This document shows positions 37,389 through 56,700 of a DNA stretch of 64,000 nucleotides, piece by piece. The stretch covers positions 70,866,001-70,930,000 of the forward strand of contig OX597823.1 of the NCBI GenBank assembly GCA_951406725.2. Reading direction: 5' to 3'. The stretch is from Octopus vulgaris (lineage: Eukaryota). Position 1 is the stretch's first letter. Every line of letters begins with the position of its first letter. The position numbers were made by a program, and so were the translations under genes. The notes below the pieces were generated by a model, which made no database searches, had not been told where the DNA came from, and was given only the letters and a program-made list of their open reading frames with translations.

Positions 37389-40300
37389 TCAGAATTTGGG
37401 CACTATGGCCCACTCAAGTAGAGAGTTATTGTTTACAGAGACATATCCGGGTGTAGGGGGTTTATCCGGGATTTCTTGAAGGAATCTGTCCAAAGACTTC
37501 TTGAACCCTATAGGGTCAGTTTCTGTTTTAATGTGTTTTGGTGTAATGTTAAAGAGAGCGGGGCCAATTGAGGTGAAATAATTGTGCCGTATTGTTGTTA
37601 TGAGATGAGAGTGCGATTTTTGTTTTGGGCGGATGGCACGGGGCCCAAGCCTTGGATGTACCTTAAAGGTGATGCCAACATCATTTGGGCAATGCTGATG
37701 GAATATTTTCCACATCATGCAGATGATGTAGCGCTCACGACGACGTTGGAGAGAATAGAGTTTTAGCTTTTCTAGTCGACCCCAATAGTCGAGGCCTGTC
37801 ATGCCATCTATCTTTTTTGTGATTGCCCTTTGAGGTGCTTCGACTTTTATGATACCTTGTATTGTGTGGGGAGACCACAGTGGACAACAGTATTCAAGGT
37901 GGGGTCGGGCAAAAGTGGAGAAGAGAAGGATAATGGTGTGGATATCTCTCGACTGGAAAGTTCTGAGAATCCAGGAACACATTCTGCGGGCCATGTCAAC
38001 TTTGGTGTTTATATGAGTGGCCCAGCTTACGTTGTTGTCCACAATTACTCCCAAGTCTCTGATGTTGTTGGACGCCGTGAGAGTTTCACCTGAAGGAAGG
38101 GAGTATGGGAGTTTCAGGGCATCCTCTTTTCCAAAGTGGATTAGCTCAAATTTATCCTCGTTCAGCAGCATATTGTTTTTTTCTGCCCATTGGATAACAG
38201 CCAGTAGATCTGACTGAAGGCATGTCCGGTCACTCGCCTCATTTATGACCTTCTGTAGCTTGGAGTCATCTGCAAAGATTTTTATGTTGCTGTGCTTGAT
38301 GATGTCATTAATGTCATTAATGTAAATGATGAAAAGAAGTGGGCCCAGCACAGTGCCTTGCGGAACGCCACTACTGACTTTGGCTGGGCTTGATTTTACC
38401 CCTTCAACTACAACATGTTGAGATCTGTCTGTCAGGAAACACTTAATCCATTTCAGTAACTTTCCAGAGACACCAATGTTGGATAGTTTTTTCAATAGGA
38501 TCTTGTGATCGACCCTGTCGAAGGCCTTACTGAAATCAAGGTAGATGACATCGGTGTTGGAGCCCTCTCCCAAAGCTCTCAAAATGTCCTCAAAGTGATG
38601 CAGGAGCTGCGTTAGGCAGTCCCTTCCATTACGGAACCCATGTTGGTTGGAGATCAGCCGTCTGTTGCTTTCCAGAAATTGGGTTATTTGAGATCTCACC
38701 ACCCTCTCAAATACCTTGATGATATGAGAGGTGAGTGAGATCGGACGGTAATTCACTGCAAGGGACTTGTTTCCCTTTTTGAAAACTGGGACAACAGACT
38801 GGGACAGAAGGTTTTTTGGAATATAGCCAGCATCCAGTGAGTTTCTCCACAGATTAGCAAGGGGAGATGCAAGTTGGTGTCGACACACCTTCAGGACACA
38901 AGCAGGGAACCTATCGGGGCCTACTGCTGAATTGTGTTTTATTTCGTTTATCGCCGCTAAGACATCAGGGGCACTAAACGTTATGTCCGATATAGTGTGT
39001 TGGGGGTTGACATTACTGATACAGCCCAGATCGGCCATATCAGGATTGCTGAAAACAGAGCAGTATTGTTTCTGCAGTATCTCGGCCATGGATTTGGCAT
39101 TATCTTGGAGAGTGCCAGTTTCGTCAATTAGAGGGCCTACAGTGGAGACAGTGACCCTGCGTTTCCTCGCAAATGAAAAGAACACTTTGGGGTTGAGTTT
39201 GATTTTTTCAATGGCCCACTTCTCCTCAGCTGATCTTTGGTTATTGATGAGGGACTTCATGCATTGTTGGAGGTTATATTTTTTTGATTCAAGCAGTGCG
39301 ATAGCCGTCGAATGTGTGTGTTGCTGTTGGCAGTACTTTAGTTTGTTAATTTTTTTGTTTGTTCTTTTTATTTTTCTGATAATGGTTTTTCTGTTTTGGG
39401 GGATTCTGCACTTTTTGTTCACAGGTCTTGGTGGGGAGTGTTTTGCACATATGTCTGTGACGGTGTCTACAAAGATCTGCCAAGATGTTTTATGGTTGGT
39501 GGAGATGTGTGTATGTGTAAAGGACCAGTCAACATTTGATAGCTCGTTCCTGATTGCATCCCAGTTGGCTTTATGGAGATCCATGTTGTCAAATGGGTGG
39601 GCTGGAGGAAGGTCACTAGGATTAGCTTTCGGCTGGTGGAATTTCATGTTACAGAGAACCATGTCATGGTCTGAAAGAAGGGTTTTTTCCACTGTAACGT
39701 TATGTATAGTGTTAGTGTGGTTACTAAACACTAGGTCCAAAATGTTCTGATGTCTTGTTGGTGCAAGGACAAGTTGGGACAAGAAAAACTCATTCGTAAA
39801 GTCGAAAAGTGACTCTGCTGCTTCTTTGTCAGCGGTTGAGGCGGGAGTGCTTGGTTTCAAACAGTTTGTAGTCCAGTCAACACAGGGTAGATTGAAGTCT
39901 CCCATCATGAGTATGTTGCTAGAATGGCACTGTTGAATAAAGCACTTAATGCTGTTGAGGCATTCTTTAAAGCACAGTATGGGTGTTTGGGGCGGCCTAT
40001 AGAGTCCAATTACTGTCAGATCATTGGCTTTGTTGTGCACGGTGACTGATTCACAGTAGCCGTTGGAGAATATACTATTTCCATCTGCCGTAAATGAATC
40101 ATGCAGGAAAATGGCAGTTCCACCCTTCCTCCTGCCGATACGATCCGCGCGGATGGTTGTGAAATTCTTCACTCTCACTTCGGCTTCCAAGTGGGAGTTG
40201 TCAAGGTGGGTCTCAGTGAGAATGAAGAAAGGGATGTGGTGTGAATGGTTACCAACCCAGTCTTCAATGAATTGGACCTTCCATTTTTGTGCATTGATGG

Positions 40301-40628
40301 AAGGGCTGACACCTTGTGCATTGAGTAGGAATGTGGAGGTTAGTGTAGTGGCTGGTTTTGACTGTTGCAGGGGGCTTGGATTTTTTGTGTGTGTTAGTGG
40401 TAGCAATGTGGGGAATTGGTGCACTGGGGTAATAGCATAGGATGGTGTTGAGTGATGGCTAGAATGTTTTTGTGTATCTCTTTTGCCATGTTCAACATGG
40501 CTAAAAAGAATTTTCCTGCTTAGGGAGCAGTTTTTGGCTGGAGGTGTGGTTGCACTGTTGGATAGGGTTGTAGTTTCCACTTTTGTTGTTGTTGTTTTTG
40601 TGTCTTCCTGAAAAGACTGGACCAGCAT
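37389..40628 (-). CDS. LINE ORF2: APE endonuclease plus reverse transcriptase (1079 aa)
   Basis: APE motifs LTETHL, GDFNLP, LDLVF, SDHD; RT motifs YRPISLTS, QHGFR, LDFSKAFD, GVPQGTVLGP, FADD; CR1-type C-terminus RPHLEYC..WSP, LYSLQRRR. Confidence 0.97.
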   Translation of the reverse strand: MLVQSFQEDTKTTTTKVETTTLSNSATTPPAKNCSLSRKILFSHVEHGKRDTQKHSSHHSTPSYAITPVHQFPTLLPLTHTKNPSPLQQSKPATTLTSTFLLNAQGVSPSINAQKWKVQFIEDWVGNHSHHIPFFILTETHLDNSHLEAEVRVKNFTTIRADRIGRRKGGTAIFLHDSFTADGNSIFSNGYCESVTVHNKANDLTVIGLYRPPQTPILCFKECLNSIKCFIQQCHSSNILMMGDFNLPCVDWTTNCLKPSTPASTADKEAAESLFDFTNEFFLSQLVLAPTRHQNILDLVFSNHTNTIHNVTVEKTLLSDHDMVLCNMKFHQPKANPSDLPPAHPFDNMDLHKANWDAIRNELSNVDWSFTHTHISTNHKTSWQIFVDTVTDICAKHSPPRPVNKKCRIPQNRKTIIRKIKRTNKKINKLKYCQQQHTHSTAIALLESKKYNLQQCMKSLINNQRSAEEKWAIEKIKLNPKVFFSFARKRRVTVSTVGPLIDETGTLQDNAKSMAEILQKQYCSVFSNPDMADLGCISNVNPQHTISDITFSAPDVLAAINEIKHNSAVGPDRFPACVLKVCRHQLASPLANLWRNSLDAGYIPKNLLSQSVVPVFKKGNKSLAVNYRPISLTSHIIKVFERVVRSQITQFLESNRRLISNQHGFRNGRDCLTQLLHHFEDILRALGEGSNTDVIYLDFSKAFDRVDHKILLKKLSNIGVSGKLLKWIKCFLTDRSQHVVVEGVKSSPAKVSSGVPQGTVLGPLLFIIYINDINDIIKHSNIKIFADDSKLQKVINEASDRTCLQSDLLAVIQWAEKNNMLLNEDKFELIHFGKEDALKLPYSLPSGETLTASNNIRDLGVIVDNNVSWATHINTKVDMARRMCSWILRTFQSRDIHTIILLFSTFARPHLEYCCPLWSPHTIQGIIKVEAPQRAITKKIDGMTGLDYWGRLEKLKLYSLQRRRERYIICMMWKIFHQHCPNDVGITFKVHPRLGPRAIRPKQKSHSHLITTIRHNYFTSIGPALFNITPKHIKTETDPIGFKKSLDRFLQEIPDKPPTPGYVSVNNNSLLEWAIVPKF

Positions 40629-41619
40629 TACTGCAGCATGGTGTGTTTCTATTTTTATTGTTATTCAGGTTTGTGTGTTGGCTTGAGGCCCCGTTTCTGT
40701 TTGTGCGTCGGGTCCCTGGAAGATGAGTGAAGGGACAGTCACTCAGTAGACATGTTCTCTCACGTTGGGAATACCGGCAGATTTTGGGACTCCGAGTTGT
40801 GTGTGTTTTGAATTTCGATTTACTATTTGGTGGTGTTGATGTTATTGTGGGATGCGTGCTTTGGCCTTGGCCAGTAGTGCGTCTAGTGCCGGGTAGATGC
40901 GTGAAGATGCAGTCACTATTTGTGCAGAGTCTCTGGCGCAGTGAATAGCGGCATATTTGGGGATTTCTTGTTTGTGCCGTGGGGGGCGCATTCTGCTTCC
41001 TATGTTTCTTTAAGTTTTTGTTACTGCAGTAGTATTGAGGTGGTGATGTGGGGGAAGAGGGCAGTGGTTTCTTATTTGGTTTTCTGTTGGTATTTTTGGT
41101 GATAGAAGACGATGGTGGCAGCGGTGGTGATGATGATGATGATAATTGTGGTGGTTGCTGTGAGAGCGGTGAAAAGATACTGGCATTTAGTGAATCGTCT
41201 AGTAAGCTAGAGTTGAGGAGTGGCTGTTGTTGTTCTTGTTGCTGTGGCTGTTGTTGTTGTTGTTGTGCCTGACCGATGTCAGGGTCAGCCATTGTGTTGG
41301 GAACCAGGAGTGGCTCATTCTGTTGTTGTTGTTGTGGCTGCTGATTTTCTAGCTGTTGTTGTTCTTGAACTGTGAAAATATGTAGAAGCTTTTCATAATG
41401 GCCTCTTATCAGTTTGAAAGATACTTCGATATGTTTCAACTTGCTACGAATCTGTTTGACGGATCGTGTGTTGACCACTTGTGATGTTTTTTCGGCAATC
41501 TCATTCAAACACAAGACATTTAGATTTTCTGTTTGGGAAAGAGAGAGCCATGTGTTTATTAAAACATCAATTTCGTTATCAGACCAATTTCGTCTGTTGC
41601 AGGCCTGCAAGTTAGTCAT
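40501..41619 (-). CDS. LINE ORF1 (372 aa): Myb/SANT-like N-terminus, Q/P/S linker, two CCCH zinc fingers
   Basis: RRNWSDNEIDVLINTW...RSVKQIRSKLK; CRYSLRQRLCTNSDCIFTH and CRYSQRERTCLLSDCPFTH; lies directly upstream of ORF2. Confidence 0.8.
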   Translation of the reverse strand: MTNLQACNRRNWSDNEIDVLINTWLSLSQTENLNVLCLNEIAEKTSQVVNTRSVKQIRSKLKHIEVSFKLIRGHYEKLLHIFTVQEQQQLENQQPQQQQQNEPLLVPNTMADPDIGQAQQQQQQPQQQEQQQPLLNSSLLDDSLNASIFSPLSQQPPQLSSSSSPPLPPSSSITKNTNRKPNKKPLPSSPTSPPQYYCSNKNLKKHRKQNAPPTAQTRNPQICRYSLRQRLCTNSDCIFTHLPGTRRTTGQGQSTHPTITSTPPNSKSKFKTHTTRSPKICRYSQRERTCLLSDCPFTHLPGTRRTNRNGASSQHTNLNNNKNRNTPCCSNAGPVFSGRHKNNNNKSGNYNPIQQCNHTSSQKLLPKQENSF

Positions 41620-41940
41620 GTTTGTTTTTCTTTTGTTTGTTTTCCTTTTGATTTTTGAAAATATATATATTCTTTCTTGGGAGTTAAAGAAGTGTATATA
41701 TATATAAATGTTCTCTCTTAAGGGTGTGAGTTTTTGATTATTTGGTTGTTTGAGGATATTAAAAGAAAAACAGGTGTATATAACAATTTGTAGTTAAATG
41801 AAAACGTACTTACGGGTTTGTAGGCAAACACGTGGTTACAAATATATATATATTTAAGGTCAGTTAGTTTTGAAGCTGTGTAGCTTGCTACTGACTCGGG
41901 AGAGAAACAAATAGACGTCCGTCCAGTTCAACAGTTAATC

Positions 41941-43870: not shown

Positions 43871-44633
43871 TGTTGTGTATGTGTGTGTGTGTGTGTGTGT
43901 GTATACACACATACATATATTTACTGTTTATTTTCTCTTATTCCTTTCTATTGAAGAGCGTAGGTTCGAAACGTAAAAGACTTTTTCATATTCCCGAGCG
44001 TCAAACTAATACACTTGCTTGTTGTTCATGCACCTATCTTCGTCTTTTGTTTTTCTATAAGTTTCAACTATATATATATATATATATATAAATATATATG
44101 AGAAGTAATTAACATTCAGTTGAAATAGATATTTAATTTGAAGCACCAAGTCAGTCCGGTATTACCCGCACAGCTCAAACTAACGTGATTAAAATCAAAA
44201 TATGTAACAGGGTGCCAAGCACTAATGCAGTTTCAAGCGGGTTCATTTAACTGAACAAGACAATCATTATATCCATTTACATACAGTGCTATCTTCAGCA
44301 GCTCAAATATGGATTTTCAACAGACAAAATATATTAATATAATTTTTCTTAAATATTTTAACAGAGCATGAGGATGGAAGAATTTCATGTTGTCACTATT
44401 GTAACAAGAATAGCCAAGAGATCAACAAACTACAATTTTTAGAGTGGCATAGTACATAGTGGGTGTCATAGGGTTGTAACTAATTTCCAACTTATCTATC
44501 TCGTTATCATCCACAAAAACAGTCGTGCTGCATTTCTACTTGACTTCCTGTTACTTATTTCGATTACATATATATATATATATGTTTATTTATTTATTTA
44601 TATATATATGTATTTATATACACATATATATAA

Positions 44634-44666
<33 letters not shown>

Positions 44667-44835
44667 ACATAAGGGACTAAAGCCATCTGAATATGGCTAG
44701 GGACAGGGCAGGGTGGTGGGGGTGTTACTGTTGCATTTAGCCCCAGGCGAACATCGACGTCACCAGAAAGGCTCGACACCGTCACGGTGCCCTAAACCTG
44801 CAAAGGGAGGTAATTCCCCGATGAAGCGGAAACCA

Positions 44836-44881
44836 CACACGGACCATGGTTTCAAGGTGTATTGCCTATCATCGGCGTGTG
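44836..44881 (-). ncRNA. Hammerhead variant (CCGAUGA core), array copy 1
   Basis: cacacg CCGATGA t agg caataca cct t GAAA ccatgg TC cgtgtg. Confidence 0.65.
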
Positions 44882-45195
44882 GTAGGCCTCCGCTTCCTCG
44901 ACGAATTCTCCCTCTGCAGGATTTTCTTATATAGATTTTCAAGCAAAATACATTTGCTGATTTCGAAAATCTGTTCGAAAGCAATAATAATTCTCTAAAA
45001 GGGATATAGACAGTAACTGCTCGATAACATAAGGGACTAAAGCCATCTGAATATGGCTAGGGACAGGGCAGGGTGGTGGGGGTGTTACTGTTGCATTTAG
45101 CCCCAGGCGAACATCGACGTCACCAGAAAGGCTCGACACCGTCACGGTGCCCTAAACCTGCAAAGGGAGGTAATTCCCCGATGAAGCGGAAACCA

Positions 45196-45241
45196 CACAC
45201 GGACCATGGTTTCAAGGTGTATTGCCTATCATCGGCGTGTG
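45196..45241 (-). ncRNA. Hammerhead variant, array copy 2
   Basis: Identical to copy 1, 360 nt away. Confidence 0.65.
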
Positions 45242-45652
45242 GTAGGCCTCCGCTTCCTCGACGAATTCTCCCTCTGCAGGATTTTCTTATATAGATTTTC
45301 AAGCAAAATACATTTGCTGATTTCGAAAATCTGTTCGAAAGCAATAATAATTCTCTAAAAGGGATATAGACAGTAACTGCTCGATAACATAAGGGACTAA
45401 AGCCATCTGAATATGGCTAGGGACAGGGCAGGGTGGTGGGGGTGTTACTGTTGCATTTAGCCCCAGGCGAACATCGACGTCACCAGAAAGGCTCGACACC
45501 GTCACGGTGCCCTAAACCTGCAAAGGGAGGTAATTCCCCGATGAAGCGGAAACCACACACGGACCATGGTTTCAAGGTGTATGTATTTTGCTTGAAAATC
45601 TATATAAGAAAATCCTGCAGAGGGAGAATTCGTCGAGGAAGCGGAGGCCTAC

Positions 45653-45698
45653 CACACGCCGATGATAGGCAATACACCTTGAAACCATGGTCCGTGTG
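45653..45698 (+). ncRNA. Hammerhead variant, array copy 3
   Basis: Same motif on the plus strand; predicted cut after C45692. Confidence 0.65.
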
Positions 45699-46012
45699 TG
45701 GTTTCCGCTTCATCGGGGAATTACCTCCCTTTGCAGGTTTAGGGCACCGTGACGGTGTCGAGCCTTTCTGGTGACGTCGATGTTCGCCTGGGGCTAAATG
45801 CAACAGTAACACCCCCACCACCCTGCCCTGTCCCTAGCCATATTCAGATGGCTTTAGTCCCTTATGTTATCGAGGAGTTACTGTCTATATCCCTTTTAGA
45901 GAATTATTATTGCTTTCGAACAGATTTTCGAAATCAGCAAATGTATTTTGCTTGAAAATCTATATAAGAAAATCCTGCAGAGGGAGAATTCGTCGAGGAA
46001 GCGGAGGCCTAC

Positions 46013-46058
46013 CACACGCCGATGATAGGCAATACACCTTGAAACCATGGTCCGTGTG
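46013..46058 (+). ncRNA. Hammerhead variant, array copy 4
   Basis: Same motif; predicted cut after C46052. Confidence 0.65.
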
Positions 46059-46272
46059 TGGTTTCCGCTTCATCGGGGAATTACCTCCCTTTGCAGGTTT
46101 AGGGCACCGTGACGGTGTCGAGCCTTTCTGGTGACGTCGATGTTCGCCTGGGGCTAAATGCAACAGTAACACCCCCACCACCCTGCCCTGTCCCTAGCCA
46201 TATTCAGATGGCTTTAGTCCCTTATGTTATCGAGCAGTTACTGTCTATATCCCTTTTAGAGAATTATTATTG

Positions 46273-46315
<43 letters not shown>

Positions 46316-46331
46316 TATTTACATATATATA

Positions 46332-46368
<37 letters not shown>

Positions 46369-47455: not shown

Positions 47456-47521
<66 letters not shown>

Positions 47522-47523
47522 GG

Positions 47524-48922
47524 TTATAGAATAGTCCTTCTGAATGGGATCTGGATGTTATTCCATTCGAATTTTCGGTTGAGAGTAGGTTTGTATTCTT
47601 GTATACAAACAGCTTCTGTGACCTGTCTCAACATTGCATCGGTGGGATGTGTTGATAGGATGTTCAACTTAAGTTTCCCTAAGGATCCCTTGTGGCAGTC
47701 TACAGCATGTTGGTAGAAGATGGAGTTTGGCTTCCTTTCAATGTAGTTGTCCAGGTGTTCTTTGAACCTATCATTGATGCTTCTAGAAGTCTCACCTATG
47801 TATGACTCTGGGTTAGTCGCGCAAGCTCCCTCCTGGCACTTAATCTGGTATACAGTGCCCTTGGTTTTACAATTTACATGTGGATTTGTCGAACATATTG
47901 CGCAATTACTTTGACAGGTGATTCTATCAAATGGATATGATCTGCATAATGCCGATTTGATAGTCCTACCTGTCTTTTCTACAACTTTAATTTTTAGGCC
48001 AGTAGTGCGCAGGATTTTCTTGAATGCCTTACTTAGCTCGTTCTTAGGTGTGGCGTCAACGAACATTACTCCGTGAAATCTCCTGTTATCGTACCAAGTA
48101 ACGTTTCTCATCCTTTTGTTGGTGTCCCTCTCTAACCTATTCCAGAACTTGTTGCGGTATAGGGGGCATATACCGTTTTCGTCGTTCCTTAGAATGCGTT
48201 CAAATCTAGCTTTCGCTCTTATTGTACACCCTGACTCTATCGTCTTGTGTGTATCCGGAGCGTTGCATTTGGAATATGTAGTGCTGGATGTGTTATTGTC
48301 GTTCTTGTGGTTGGCATAGTGGTGATACATTCCTCATTACTCTAATTAAATCTGCCACTAGGATGTTGAGTTTGGCAGTATCCGACATAACTGAGTCACT
48401 ACGGATTACTAGTGGATTAGCCATCGGTTTCTGATAGTGTGAGTGGAGTATACAGGGTTTAATGGTTCCATTAACCATAGCATCTTCCATCCATAGCTCA
48501 GTATCTAGGACGGGTAATCGTTTACTGGGGTGTTTAGAGGGGTAGTCTATGGTAAATTTTATACTGCTGTGGATAGAGTCAGCTATGTGTTGTATAGATG
48601 TCATCACCTGTTCTTCACTTGGTAGAGGGCCCATAACTGTGTCTGTATTATATTTCACAAGGTTAATGTCGTCGACGTAACGAGAGTACATAGCCAAGTG
48701 GATGTTACGGTTTGCTAGGCACTGTTTAAAATGTTTGTCCCCCCATACCATGAAGAGGTTTGCAACGTCACCGGCGATCCCCACTCCAATAGCACCGCCT
48801 TTCGTCTGCCGATACAGTTTGTTGTCAAACTTAAAATTATGTGTTTTTAGCGTAAATCTCAGGCTTACACCGATAGCATGTGCTATGGTGGTTCTAATAT
48901 CAAGTGCACTTGACATTAGAAC
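47524..48922 (-). pseudogene. Penelope-like element RT (C-terminal half) plus GIY-YIG endonuclease, frameshifted
   Basis: FKFDNKLYRQTKGGAIG, RYVDDI, LPVLD; Cys-rich linker CQSNCAIC..NCK (Neptune-like); VYQIKC..YIGETSRSINDRFKEH..EAVCI..KPTLN; frameshift near 48300-48330. Confidence 0.92.
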
Positions 48923-53780: not shown

Positions 53781-56700
53781 CAAAATACATAAATTAAATT
53801 CATAAATTACAAGGAAAATTGTAAATTGTTTTGGCCCCAACAATGAGCTCCAGATTCGATTCCATTGCTTGTCATTTTCGGTAAGAGCACCGTAGGAACT
53901 AAGGCTCTAGCAGGATCTGGTTTCGAACCCTCTAGCTCATTGATTTTGCTCAGAACTAATTTTTGCGTACAATGAAAATAAATAAGGAGGAGATTTGTCA
54001 TCGAAAAAGCGTTGCTCTACCAACTTGTGCTATTTGAACGAGCTATATGAATTAATAAATAAAAAGTTAAATCCCGTACTTTTTGTATTTGTCCATTTGA
54101 CATTGGATTCGCTTGTGATAATTTTACTTAATAAGATGCTGATAGTGTGAGTTCATACATGACTTTGGAAATGTGAAACTGAATGAATATATGTGGTGGT
54201 GGTGGTAATAGTGGCAGTGGGAGATATATCAATTATTAGTGTGCAATTCATCTACATAAGAATATTAATACTAATAATACTCTTATTATCCAACATACAC
54301 AAAAAATGCTTCCCCCTAAATTAATTGGCACAGTCAGCCAATCTGTCAGTCAATTTGTAACTCTGACACTGACGTGTGGCTTAGTGTAACTGTAAAATAA
54401 ATACGAGAATGTACAGGTGCTTTATTGATAGCATAAACGAAAGACTTATTATTGTTCTGATGTTATACACAAAAAGAGACATCAAAACTCATGGTGAGAG
54501 ACAAATACACTGAAATATAATATACATGCGGAAATATAAGAACAATTTAGAAGTTTTGATAGTTTAACGGAGAAACAATGAAATGAAAGATAGCGATTGA
54601 AATGGAAAAGTAGGAATTCTATGTCACAAATCTTGTCTATTGTAATTGGACGGTAATATAATGATGGACATAATTGAATGTAAAGGCGTAGAACAAATGA
54701 AAAGTCTACTAAATTTGGATTCATTTGATCGGGGGAGAACGAAAGTCGTAAATCGCAAAGAAAGCAAGAGAATGACATTTAGAAAGTATAACAATTCACG
54801 TTAATCAACAAAAGTTCTTTAATAAAGAAGAAACAAAAAGCAAATGTGATTGCCTTGTTAGAAAGCCGTATGCTATGGCATTTGTCTCGAACGGTATTTT
54901 CATATGAATGCTTGGTGCATAAAGGCACAGAGATATATCGAAGCAGACGAGAATCGTCTGATATGTGCACCACAACTGCCAGATCACGTGATTTCAGTGT
55001 GCTGCACTTCTTCAGTGGCAGGCGGCCGGTGACCGCATGCTGCCAAATCTCGATACCACGATATATAGAATATCAGTGTTTTTAGTCAATGATGTCACAA
55101 ATAGCCAGCAGGCTTATCAAAAGAAGTAATTATTAGCGATATAAGCACGTTTATGATATATGTCAGTGCTTTTATGGACCGTGCGTTTATACGAGAGGAC
55201 TTCACAAAGCGAATAATACAATATTCAATTTCTAACAAGACATCAACGAAAAGGTGTGAATATAAAGATTGACTTTTGGTACTAATACTGCTTCCATCGC
55301 CAAGAATTATTTTTCAATAAGCCTGTTGCGGGGACGGTAGCACCGTATCCTCATGGCATCCTCCTCAAAAAGCGTTCAAGGGCCAAATAGCAGTGTTAAA
55401 AAAATACTTCAAACTTTTCATTCAATGCTCGAATAACTCTGATAAATTGCATTGCAGGACATTCCATTCGTTTATCAACTGAAATCACAATCATTTCGGC
55501 CCCAACCTTACTCCAGGAAGCGATGTTGGAGAGCGTCCATGCTATCAGAAAAATGTGTTTTCTTATGGATCACGCGGTTGTGTGCATTTATTTCTCCGCT
55601 ATTCATACCGTGATCACAACCAAACTAGGAATGACTTTGACATTTCCAGTCCCACAAACGTTATTTTCTGCTATTTACTTCCGGTTTGTTTTTCATCAAT
55701 GCCTCTGTGACATCTTTGATGAAACATTATGTATTTCCTTTTCCTGTTTCTGAATCATTACTAATCGATCTTCACTGCATTGCTTTCTTTACGCATCTAT
55801 GTTGTAGTCTTTTGTTCTCCTTCTCAAAACAACAGAGAATACCATGGTGCTTATTCTCTTTGGCTTGCTAGTGCTACATTGCTGTTTTAGATAATCAACA
55901 ACAACAATACTCAAACTACATATGTTATCAGAACGTATCTTTTCTTTATAAATATGTCCACAATGGGATTTAACATCGAATATAGTTCATGCATAGAGAT
56001 TCGTCGCCTATTGTTTCTAAATTTGTATTATTTCATGTGTCAATAACTGCAGCCGATATCTCAAATTTGTAATTAATTAAATAGTATATATATCAAATTA
56101 ATCCCATTAGGAATATTTATTTTCTTGGATGCCGTTCGACTTGTAAATGATTATAGTTTGGAGTGACAGAAACCCTTTCGGCAATGCGACTTTGGAACTT
56201 AAGAATAATTATCACGATTCATATCCTAAGTCATATATTTTCAAGTATATAATAATTTAAAGTATTTAGAATTGCAGAAATTTCTACATGTGCATTTCGA
56301 AATTATCACTACTTCAACTGCTGGTCTTGGTTTTAAAATATGGACAATTCAAGTCAAAATTTGAAGTATTCAAGACCTTCAAGTAATATCTGTGATTTTA
56401 TATCAGTCTCCACGTAGGTATATGAACAGTATGTAGATGCTTCTTTGATATTAGTGTGGTAAGAAACAATTACGACAAAATTGTCAGAGATAGAAATAAA
56501 TTTCTATCTGTAATTCCTTTAATTTATGGAGAATGGTGATTCTTTAAATCGCCCCACTCTAGCAAATTGTTTTAATGAACTAGAAGCTAATTTTGTGTAG
56601 CTGTTTATTATTTATAGTTTGTTAAAGTTTTCCATACAGCATATTCCTCTTTCTGGCTCTTTTTAGATATTTTAGCTAAATTGTTGTTATGTAACGAAAT

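Follow-up and report, generated by a model that had tools for sequence, protein, structure and literature searches.

A C4 core-variant hammerhead in a young non-LTR retrozyme of Octopus vulgaris with a PLE-like insertion footprint

Introduction

Non-LTR retrozymes have been described in coral, mussel, and axolotl, where cleavage, circles, and RtcB ligation were shown and mobilisation by a PLE was proposed (PMC7229834). In the same report, monomer constructs from coral and mussel cleave at approximately 0.8 and 0.1 per min, and the axolotl hammerhead HHR_Amex2, which has a 2-bp stem III, a tetraloop, and a U.U mismatch, cleaves to 22% within 1 h when monomeric and far more efficiently when dimeric. 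For the hammerheads of PLEs, a U3-A8 variant and dimer cleavage have been described, and cleavage in vitro is slow even with dimers (PMC4209133). The published descriptor for minimal hammerheads requires the word cuganga (PMC4209133 supplement), and hammerheads with C at position 4 (C4) are therefore missed; three C4 words are absent from the text of that supplement.

PLE insertions typically carry a 30-40 bp tail on one side and a truncated copy in inverted orientation, and they target (TA)n (10.1101/2021.04.23.441226). The tail has been explained as the gap between two internal start sites of the reverse transcriptase (RT), and cleavage was dispensable for insertion of an anole PLE in vitro (PMC11167929). 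A viroid with a U4C hammerhead kept its infectivity though its cleavage was much slower in vitro, and U10.1.U11.1 is a natural mismatch and the best tolerated one (PMC3088659).

Here, we describe a hammerhead with both of these changes. The window is a stretch of 64,000 nucleotides of Octopus vulgaris DNA, and the genome-wide motif counts refer to a 2.8-Gb animal assembly.

The retrozyme array and its integration site

Judged by its sequence, the rod-like structure at positions 45614-45737 of the window is part of a young non-LTR retrozyme of several hundred copies, which carries a core-variant hammerhead and shows every testable property of a retrozyme. The whole insertion (44664-46274, no strand assigned) is an inverted tandem array of a 360-bp unit, as delimited by TRF and by the BLAST pieces of this locus (L001). 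TRF reported a period of 360 with 2.6 and 1.9 copies and 99-100% matches. The left arm (44664-45582, minus strand) contains 2.6 units; its outer end lies at unit position 271 and has no tail, and its inner end is truncated within loop II. The right arm (45581-46274, plus strand) contains 1.9 units and ends at unit position 315 with a tail, and the two arms overlap by 2 nt at the inversion point. This tail of 44 nt (46231-46274, plus strand; unit positions 272-315) fills the space between both fixed end sites and is found at one outer end only. The array is flanked by a (TA)n-rich target on the left (44568-44663) and a (TA)n target on the right (46275-46367), neither with a strand.

Each unit carries one hammerhead motif, with a spacing of 360 bp, and arrays of at least 23 motifs occur among the matches listed. 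In addition to the hammerhead discussed below, the right arm has a second one of identical sequence (46013-46058, plus strand), and sequence comparison and BLAST placed two further identical copies in the left arm (45196-45241 and 44836-44881, minus strand). The unit has a G+C content below 50% (170/360), and tblastn with two PLE proteins found no RT or endonuclease coding sequence in the retrozyme arrays. A DNA search with the retrozyme yielded 254 matches, drawn from 40 of 665 candidates; among the matches listed, almost all have 98-100% identity.

Other elements were observed in the window. A 5'-truncated and frameshifted PLE-like fragment (47518-48915, minus strand) with an RT motif and a GIY-YIG domain with a cysteine motif breaks off at a (TC)n tract and lies 1.2 kb from the array; its identity to PLE family B (see below) is 27% (110 aa). 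A LINE-like element (37392-41793, minus strand) has an open ORF1 with a weak Myb/SANT match and an ORF2 with AP endonuclease and RT in an open frame of 1,091 aa. A type I hammerhead-like motif with the canonical core CUGAAGA, a 6-bp stem I, a palindromic stem III, and an AUC triplet occurs once in the window (approximately 54970-55025, minus strand).

Structure of the rod and the hammerhead

The rod (45614-45737, plus strand; RNAfold and strand comparison) is imperfect, 124 nt long, and extends stem I. All four nested pairings proposed in an earlier sequence-only reading are present, namely 13 bp including one G.U, a helix of ten positions in which nine pair and one is a G.G mismatch, 12 bp including two G.U, and the 6-bp stem I. 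RNAfold gave -68.9 kcal/mol for the plus strand (z -7.89; 0/200 shuffles as good) and -58.1 kcal/mol for the minus strand (z -5.65). That reading had also assigned the structure to plus-strand RNA on the basis of G.U pairs. The G.U count by itself does little to distinguish the strands, with 4 vs 3 such pairs in the MFE folds, and the assignment stands on stability: the plus-strand rod was the more stable one in 13/13 subfamily representatives, by 8.9-18.4 kcal/mol.

The hammerhead is of type I (45653-45698, plus strand), as derived from the sequence and from pair counts on a 24-row alignment; the coordinates that follow are all on this strand. Stem I has 6 bp (45653-45658/45693-45698) and is followed by the core CCGAUGA (45659-45665). 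As first noticed from the letters alone, C replaces U4 (45660) and a U.U mismatch at 10.1/11.1 closes stem II (45666/45680). Stem II (45667-45669/45677-45679) carries loop II (45670-45676), and GAAA and GAAAC occupy 45681-45684 and 45681-45685. Stem III and loop III form an 8-nt palindrome, ACCAUGGU (45684-45691), consisting of two pairs and a palindromic tetraloop. Cleavage is predicted after a GUC triplet, at 45692/45693 (45692|45693). The UAC side of the internal loop that closes stem I (45650-45652), the U at 45699, and loop II are likely to form a loop-loop tertiary contact; the U after stem I is kept in 24/24 alignment rows, and loop II (CAA..CA) is nearly invariant. This arrangement presumably resembles that of the Schistosoma ribozyme.

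Compared with a canonical type I hammerhead, the core departs from CUGANGA and the G10.1-C11.1 pair is absent, and GAAA, A15.1-U16.1, an NUH triplet, and the 3-8 pair are all present. A helix I of 6 bp, a short helix II, and a helix III of 1-2 bp with a palindromic loop, as set out in PMC4209133, are found as well. The motif is classed as a core variant and not as a canonical hammerhead because its core reads CCGAUGA. Rfam covariance models gave no match at the gathering score in the 64-kb window and none at E up to 10 in 45560-46300.

The tip of the MFE fold of 45614-45737 differs from the active hammerhead, which lies 7.4 kcal/mol higher. An off-state hairpin, strengthened by C3C4, has a probability of approximately 0.26 in the circle, where stem II reaches 0.08 and stem III 0.0. 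The core (45659-45665) has an exact 7-nt complement in the right arm (45710-45716), and this match grew stepwise through the subfamilies. Pairing between the two was considered and rejected, as its probability in the folded circle is 0.0.

The term viroid-like, which had been applied to the rod, does not suit a DNA-integrated retrozyme of one polarity whose predicted circle is branched and of which the rod makes up 124/360 nt. The corresponding explanation is that DNA captured a replicating RNA of viroid-like or satellite type, with ribozymes of both polarities. The rod itself and a CCGAUGA...GAAAC look-alike on the minus strand of the right arm could be read in this way. The look-alike was rejected as a minus-strand hammerhead, since stems I and II are both missing and older subfamilies no longer have its GAAAC. 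Given also the branched circle and the hundreds of genomic sites with PLE footprints, we regard such a capture as highly improbable.

Conservation of the fold

Pairs were counted on an alignment of 24 hand-picked representatives (20 of the family and four of a sister family). Pairing was retained in 92.8% of cells, compared to 21-54% in slid controls, and 10/15 pairs changed on both sides; these controls ignore relatedness, and many of the two-sided changes come from the four sister rows. The 3-8 pair was C-G in 10 rows, U.G in nine, and U-A in five, and was never broken. One stem I pair changed from C-G to U-A in five family rows and in sister rows. Loop III reads CAUG, CUAG, CUGG, or AUAU, with self-pairing in 95.8% of cells, and the A-U and C-G pairs of stem III are present in 24/24 rows. 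Position 10.1/11.1 was G-C in one row, G.U in two, and unpaired in 21. Among 13 representatives, none of the 11 other core positions varies, compared to 54/216 positions outside the ribozyme (Fisher p 0.07). The core, the 3-8 pair, and the self-pairing of loop III are kept across approximately 17% divergence. Covariation in stems I and II, at the 3-8 pair, and in the self-complementary loop III indicates that the fold is under selection.

Predicted cleavage, dimers, and the circle

The proposal that such a short stem III acts through a double hammerhead gains support from loop III, which is self-complementary in all four of its forms, and from a favourable dimer fold. In this fold, the palindrome at 45684-45691 would pair with its counterpart in the following unit. 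For the natural dimer, the double-hammerhead fold has -196.8 kcal/mol vs -185.6 kcal/mol for two single hammerheads, which is 11.2 better, and lies 4.8 kcal/mol above the dimer MFE, whose tip hairpin hides the core. The predicted monomer RNA extends over 360 nt from cut site to cut site (45693-46052, plus strand). Its circular fold has -120.9 kcal/mol (z -5.7 vs 100 shuffles) and is branched, with 67% of bases paired and a stem III probability of 0.0. The double fold being better than two singles and the absence of stem III from the circle both fit a ribozyme that would be favoured in dimers and a circle that would be stable. The ribozyme is therefore better modelled as dimer-favoured than as dimer-only, and the earlier statement that only multimeric RNA would cleave goes too far: the axolotl, coral, and mussel monomers cleave (PMC7229834).

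The ends of genomic copies were compared with the predicted cut. Among those listed, 4/96 of the 5' junctions lie one base 3' of it, the 96 including approximately four position-1 artefacts and one duplicate. A genome-wide pattern at this base matched true junctions in 5/15 cases, compared to 1/4 at the cut itself, in a count that covered these two positions. Unit positions 54, 216, and 327 have 3-4 of the 5' junctions each.

C4 as the state of a young subfamily

If the family consensus were CUGAUGA, the C4 core of this copy could be a dead mutant. The exact C4 motif has 821 matches in the genome (reversed control 0), with the same stem II in all of the 100 listed. The U4 pattern (CUGAUGA) has 21 matches, and the stem II of the retrozyme is found in 0/21. 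These counts show that C4 is the state of the whole young subfamily and not a mutation of a dead copy. In 20/21 cases, the U4 matches appear to belong to a single sister family that shares loop II and has C.A at 10.1/11.1, and the rod ends of this family resemble those of the retrozyme in the loci read. Within the first 30 loci, 54/59 distinct ribozyme copies are identical over 62 nt. When position 4 was allowed to be anything except C, 159 matches resulted, the 100 listed all reading UUGAYGA, and a pattern omitting the CAUG loop gave 209 matches, of the CUAG and CUGG types only.

Further subfamilies were sampled from 40 sites on C1 with the same end (of at least 59 on C1) and from 20 non-C4 loci. 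Their cores are CCGACGA, UUGAUGA, UUGACGA, and UUGAUAA. Within an array, units diverge by a median of 0.24% in each of the two CC groups (51 and 13 arrays) and by 0.39-1.15% in the UU groups, which have 2-6 arrays each. The subfamily tree is unrooted and ladder-like, with the CCGAUGA clade at its far end (99/96 support). As the sister family is too remote to serve as a root, the order of subfamilies depends on the within-array divergence, with few arrays per older group. Read in this order, the most likely course is that C4 arose recently from a U3U4 form and marks the youngest and most numerous subfamily seen.

C4 units also occur in contigs of runs labelled organism A (X1), B (X14, of the CCGACGA type), and D (X16), and an assembly error of the genome can therefore be dismissed. 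ADAR or C-to-U editing as the source or repair of C4 was considered and rejected: among 66 changes confined to one unit, G>A accounts for 15, C>T for 11, A>G for 7, and T>C for 6, and U4 is absent from contig X1. In assembled public runs, which are not on record as RNA, a looped contig of 390 nt fits a circle or tandem DNA equally.

The retrozyme-like sister family (L031-L042) has the canonical U4, C.A at 10.1/11.1, a palindromic loop III (AUAU), and a similar rod; its copies are mostly single and truncated, and L039 is a further, more distant type.

Array homogeneity and the template

Haplotypes were surveyed in 52 arrays with 335 pieces. In 58 combinations of an array with one of eight shared markers, the marker extends through the whole array, and T141A is mixed in two arrays. 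Private variants can fill an array, as for T347C (8/8) and A257T (4/4), both in both arms, and G21A (2/2). T166C was present in 13/15 pieces, and both misses are indel calls at that place. A single array has 24 pieces of one derived haplotype. Array-wide markers together with private variants of this kind indicate that new variants pass a bottleneck of one unit and are then re-amplified. Seven other private variants are present in 2-3 units of an array and not in all, so that not every array derives from a single monomer, and multimeric templates or later exchange of DNA also occur. At L064, L013/L018, L047, and L067, variants are common to 2-3 non-adjacent units and possibly stem from multimeric circles, template switching, or later duplication. 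A circular template, as predicted by rolling-circle reverse transcription, is probable, and homogenisation of arrays at the DNA level may contribute.

A different account holds that the ribozyme is crippled and dispensable, that a PLE reverse transcribes uncut multimers, and that unequal exchange or slippage of DNA lengthens and homogenises the arrays. It agrees with PLE insertion in vitro, which needs no cleavage (PMC11167929), with the drift of the lineage through three non-canonical cores, and with the mixed state of some arrays. C4 sites also contain more ribozymes than the older sites do, which could result from uncut RNA: on C1, 83 C4 motifs lie at 18 sites and 11 UUGAYGA motifs at eight, with 31 UUGAYGA motifs at 17 sites on C3, although the comparison is biased by age and by exact matching. 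The fold, however, has been kept at the core, the 3-8 pair, and loop III through all of this divergence. Linear copying, moreover, cannot lengthen arrays or carry a new variant to all units, whereas eight nested markers and private variants extend through whole arrays and both arms, with a median unit divergence of only 0.24%. A dispensable ribozyme is quite unlikely on these grounds.

Ends, target, and the PLE footprint

Array ends fall at unit position 271 or 315, which are 44 nt apart. Among the ends listed at these positions, 17/19 lie directly beside (TA)n, and wherever an array could be followed to both of its ends (7/7), one end was of each type. The tailed end followed by (TA) has 751 exact matches in the genome, and both orientations are present in 39/52 arrays. 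The tail, the inverted arm, and the (TA)n target are together read as the footprint of PLE insertion, and the retrozyme is very probably moved by a PLE.

PLEs co-exist with the retrozyme, as two families (A and B) with RT and GIY-YIG ORFs are present in the genome. The search for a partner scored 150/6,136 GIY-YIG candidates and examined 30 loci. The retrozyme end or tail was not found in autonomous PLEs, the best E being 0.08 in the 30 GIY-YIG loci and 0.15 in two full elements. Families A and B were rejected as partners, having no end homology to the retrozyme. L196 was likewise rejected, since its tail-like end belongs to an older relative of the retrozyme located approximately 600 bp beyond the PLE end.

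Older relatives with the same tail and (TA)n ends were observed at L007:495-772 and L196:5575-5817, and the latter copy starts inside a hammerhead with a wobble-palindromic loop III. Family A (L164, L188-L195) is young and (TA)n-inserted, and has a 765-aa RT/GIY-YIG ORF, a 466-aa upstream ORF, and a U3-A8 minimal hammerhead.

C4 in other families of the genome

A relaxed scan of 761 kb, comprising the window and further loci that overlap and are enriched for the retrozyme, gave 510 motifs (reversed control 0) and revealed C4 in unrelated families. A minimal-hammerhead family has 6,457 exact C4 copies, and a pattern that differs slightly found 3,321 copies with U4. In PLE family B, whose hammerheads likewise close stem II with U.U, 1,536 motifs were counted, and the first 100 comprise 74 with C4 and 26 with U4. 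In these 100, C4 and U4 are linked to a second marker (71/74 vs 25/26). The single C4 locus of this family that was read contains intact tandem elements of 4,271 bp, and the single U4 locus has a broken ORF. On these counts, C4 would be the majority state in at least three unrelated families of the same genome, against the CpG mutation bias.

The minimal-hammerhead repeat (L174, L198-L203) is short and (TA)n-flanked, and no PLE protein was found near it in the six loci tested. In PLE B (L212 = G000:C1:27840000-27849999, L196, and L213), an ORF of 430 aa precedes the RT/GIY-YIG ORF, which is unexpected for an EN+ PLE, and the end sites are approximately 33 nt apart. A further C4 hammerhead-like motif with a GUA or GUU triplet occurs at L162:160-265 and L192, and the copy at L162 tips a perfect hairpin of approximately 37 bp.

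We tentatively suggest, with considerable doubt, that U4C is a tuning repeatedly adopted in the PLE-driven elements of this genome and not decay. It might slow or protein-gate cleavage and thereby let circles last through more rounds of reverse transcription, with longer arrays, or make circles dependent on the PLE protein. If so, many C4 ribozymes would be invisible to CUGANGA descriptors and Rfam, and the U3-A8, U3.G8, and C3-G8/C4 forms would be a natural dated allelic series in which to ask how active the ribozyme of a retrozyme has to be.

The element and its cycle could also be the same with a C4 ribozyme that cleaves only with a PLE protein or a host chaperone, which would gate circle formation. 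The hammerhead of the anole PLE requires its protein for cleavage (PMC11167929), and PLE hammerheads are slow even as dimers (PMC4209133); the recurrence of C4 in an intact PLE family and in the minimal-hammerhead family points the same way. Against this, the octopus ribozyme keeps the 6-bp stem I and the conserved loops of the protein-independent retrozyme type, and the coral, mussel, and axolotl retrozymes cleave unaided (PMC7229834). Strict dependence on a protein therefore appears unlikely.

Proposed cycle and its implications

Taken as a whole, the observations are on balance best explained by a young non-LTR retrozyme mobilised by a PLE, with a weakened yet working C4 ribozyme and a circular template. 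We infer transcription, cleavage, ligation, the use of the circle as a template, and a PLE as the driver as the steps of this cycle. Read-through transcripts of tandem arrays would be cut after GUC by the weakened type I hammerhead (C4, U.U), best when neighbouring units share an 8-bp stem III. The rod would hold both ends of the 360-nt monomer close to each other, a host ligase would close the circle, and the ribozyme would be mostly off within it. The RT/GIY-YIG protein of a PLE would then nick (TA)n, and cDNA would start inside the RNA at two sites 44 nt apart. By running round the circle, the RT would produce tandem arrays of one haplotype that are tailed at one end but not at the other and in most cases bear an inverted arm. 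The combination of two weakening changes in one ribozyme speaks against its activity; we nevertheless consider it fairly likely that the C4 ribozyme cleaves unaided at a useful rate.

If C4 motifs cleave, the number of hammerheads in animals is underestimated, and the core consensus of PLE-linked hammerheads should read Y4. If they do not, a retrozyme can go on spreading without ribozyme activity. The PLE footprint and the signature of a monomer template also bear on who moves animal retrozymes and on whether the circle is the template, both of which have so far only been proposed.

Comparison with known systems

The metazoan non-LTR retrozymes, such as axolotl Rtz_353/HHR_Amex2 and the mussel repeat of 350-390 bp (PMC7229834), are, like the octopus element, tandem and non-coding, with units of 150-450 bp and less than 50% GC. 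They likewise have one type I hammerhead per unit and a self-paired circle, and HHR_Amex2 shares the 2-bp stem III, the tetraloop, and U.U at the base of stem II. In this comparison, the octopus element alone has C4 fixed in a young subfamily and the U3-A8, U3.G8, and C3-G8/C4 series. It also has a clear PLE tail and inversion footprints, whereas cleavage and expression are known for the published elements and predicted here.

With the hammerheads of PLE pLTRs (PMC4209133; 10.1101/2021.04.23.441226; PMC11167929), the element has in common a palindromic stem III, U3-A8, a tail, an inverted 5'-truncated copy, and (TA)n. It differs from them in lacking an ORF, in a stem I and loops of canonical and not minimal type, and in a tail of 44 nt compared to 30-40 bp. 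A naturally occurring viroid hammerhead with U4C (Ambros and Flores 1998, via PMC3088659) has the same change in the core, and is slower in vitro and sufficient in vivo. That case is a rare variant of a plant RNA pathogen, whereas C4 in the octopus is the majority state in genomic families of hundreds to thousands of copies, combined with U.U.

A recent preprint (Li, Clavereau and Pollet 2026; 10.64898/2026.07.22.740005) likewise regards retrozymes as non-autonomous derivatives of PLEs. It is based on co-occurrence and pLTR phylogeny, mostly in vertebrates, and the word "tail" does not appear in its main text; the evidence for a PLE link in the octopus is, in contrast, an insertion footprint. 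The literature searched did not mention a genomic family in which C4 is fixed, a weak sign that none has been described, and the PLE variants of Lunse et al. may include C4. It also gave nothing on this element under octopus retrozymes or hammerheads, although the supplement of PMC7229834 may list related invertebrate retrozymes. The retrozyme class is thus known and each oddity of this member has a precedent, and it is the fixed and recurrent C4, the series of subfamilies, and the footprints of PLE and circle that set the octopus element apart.
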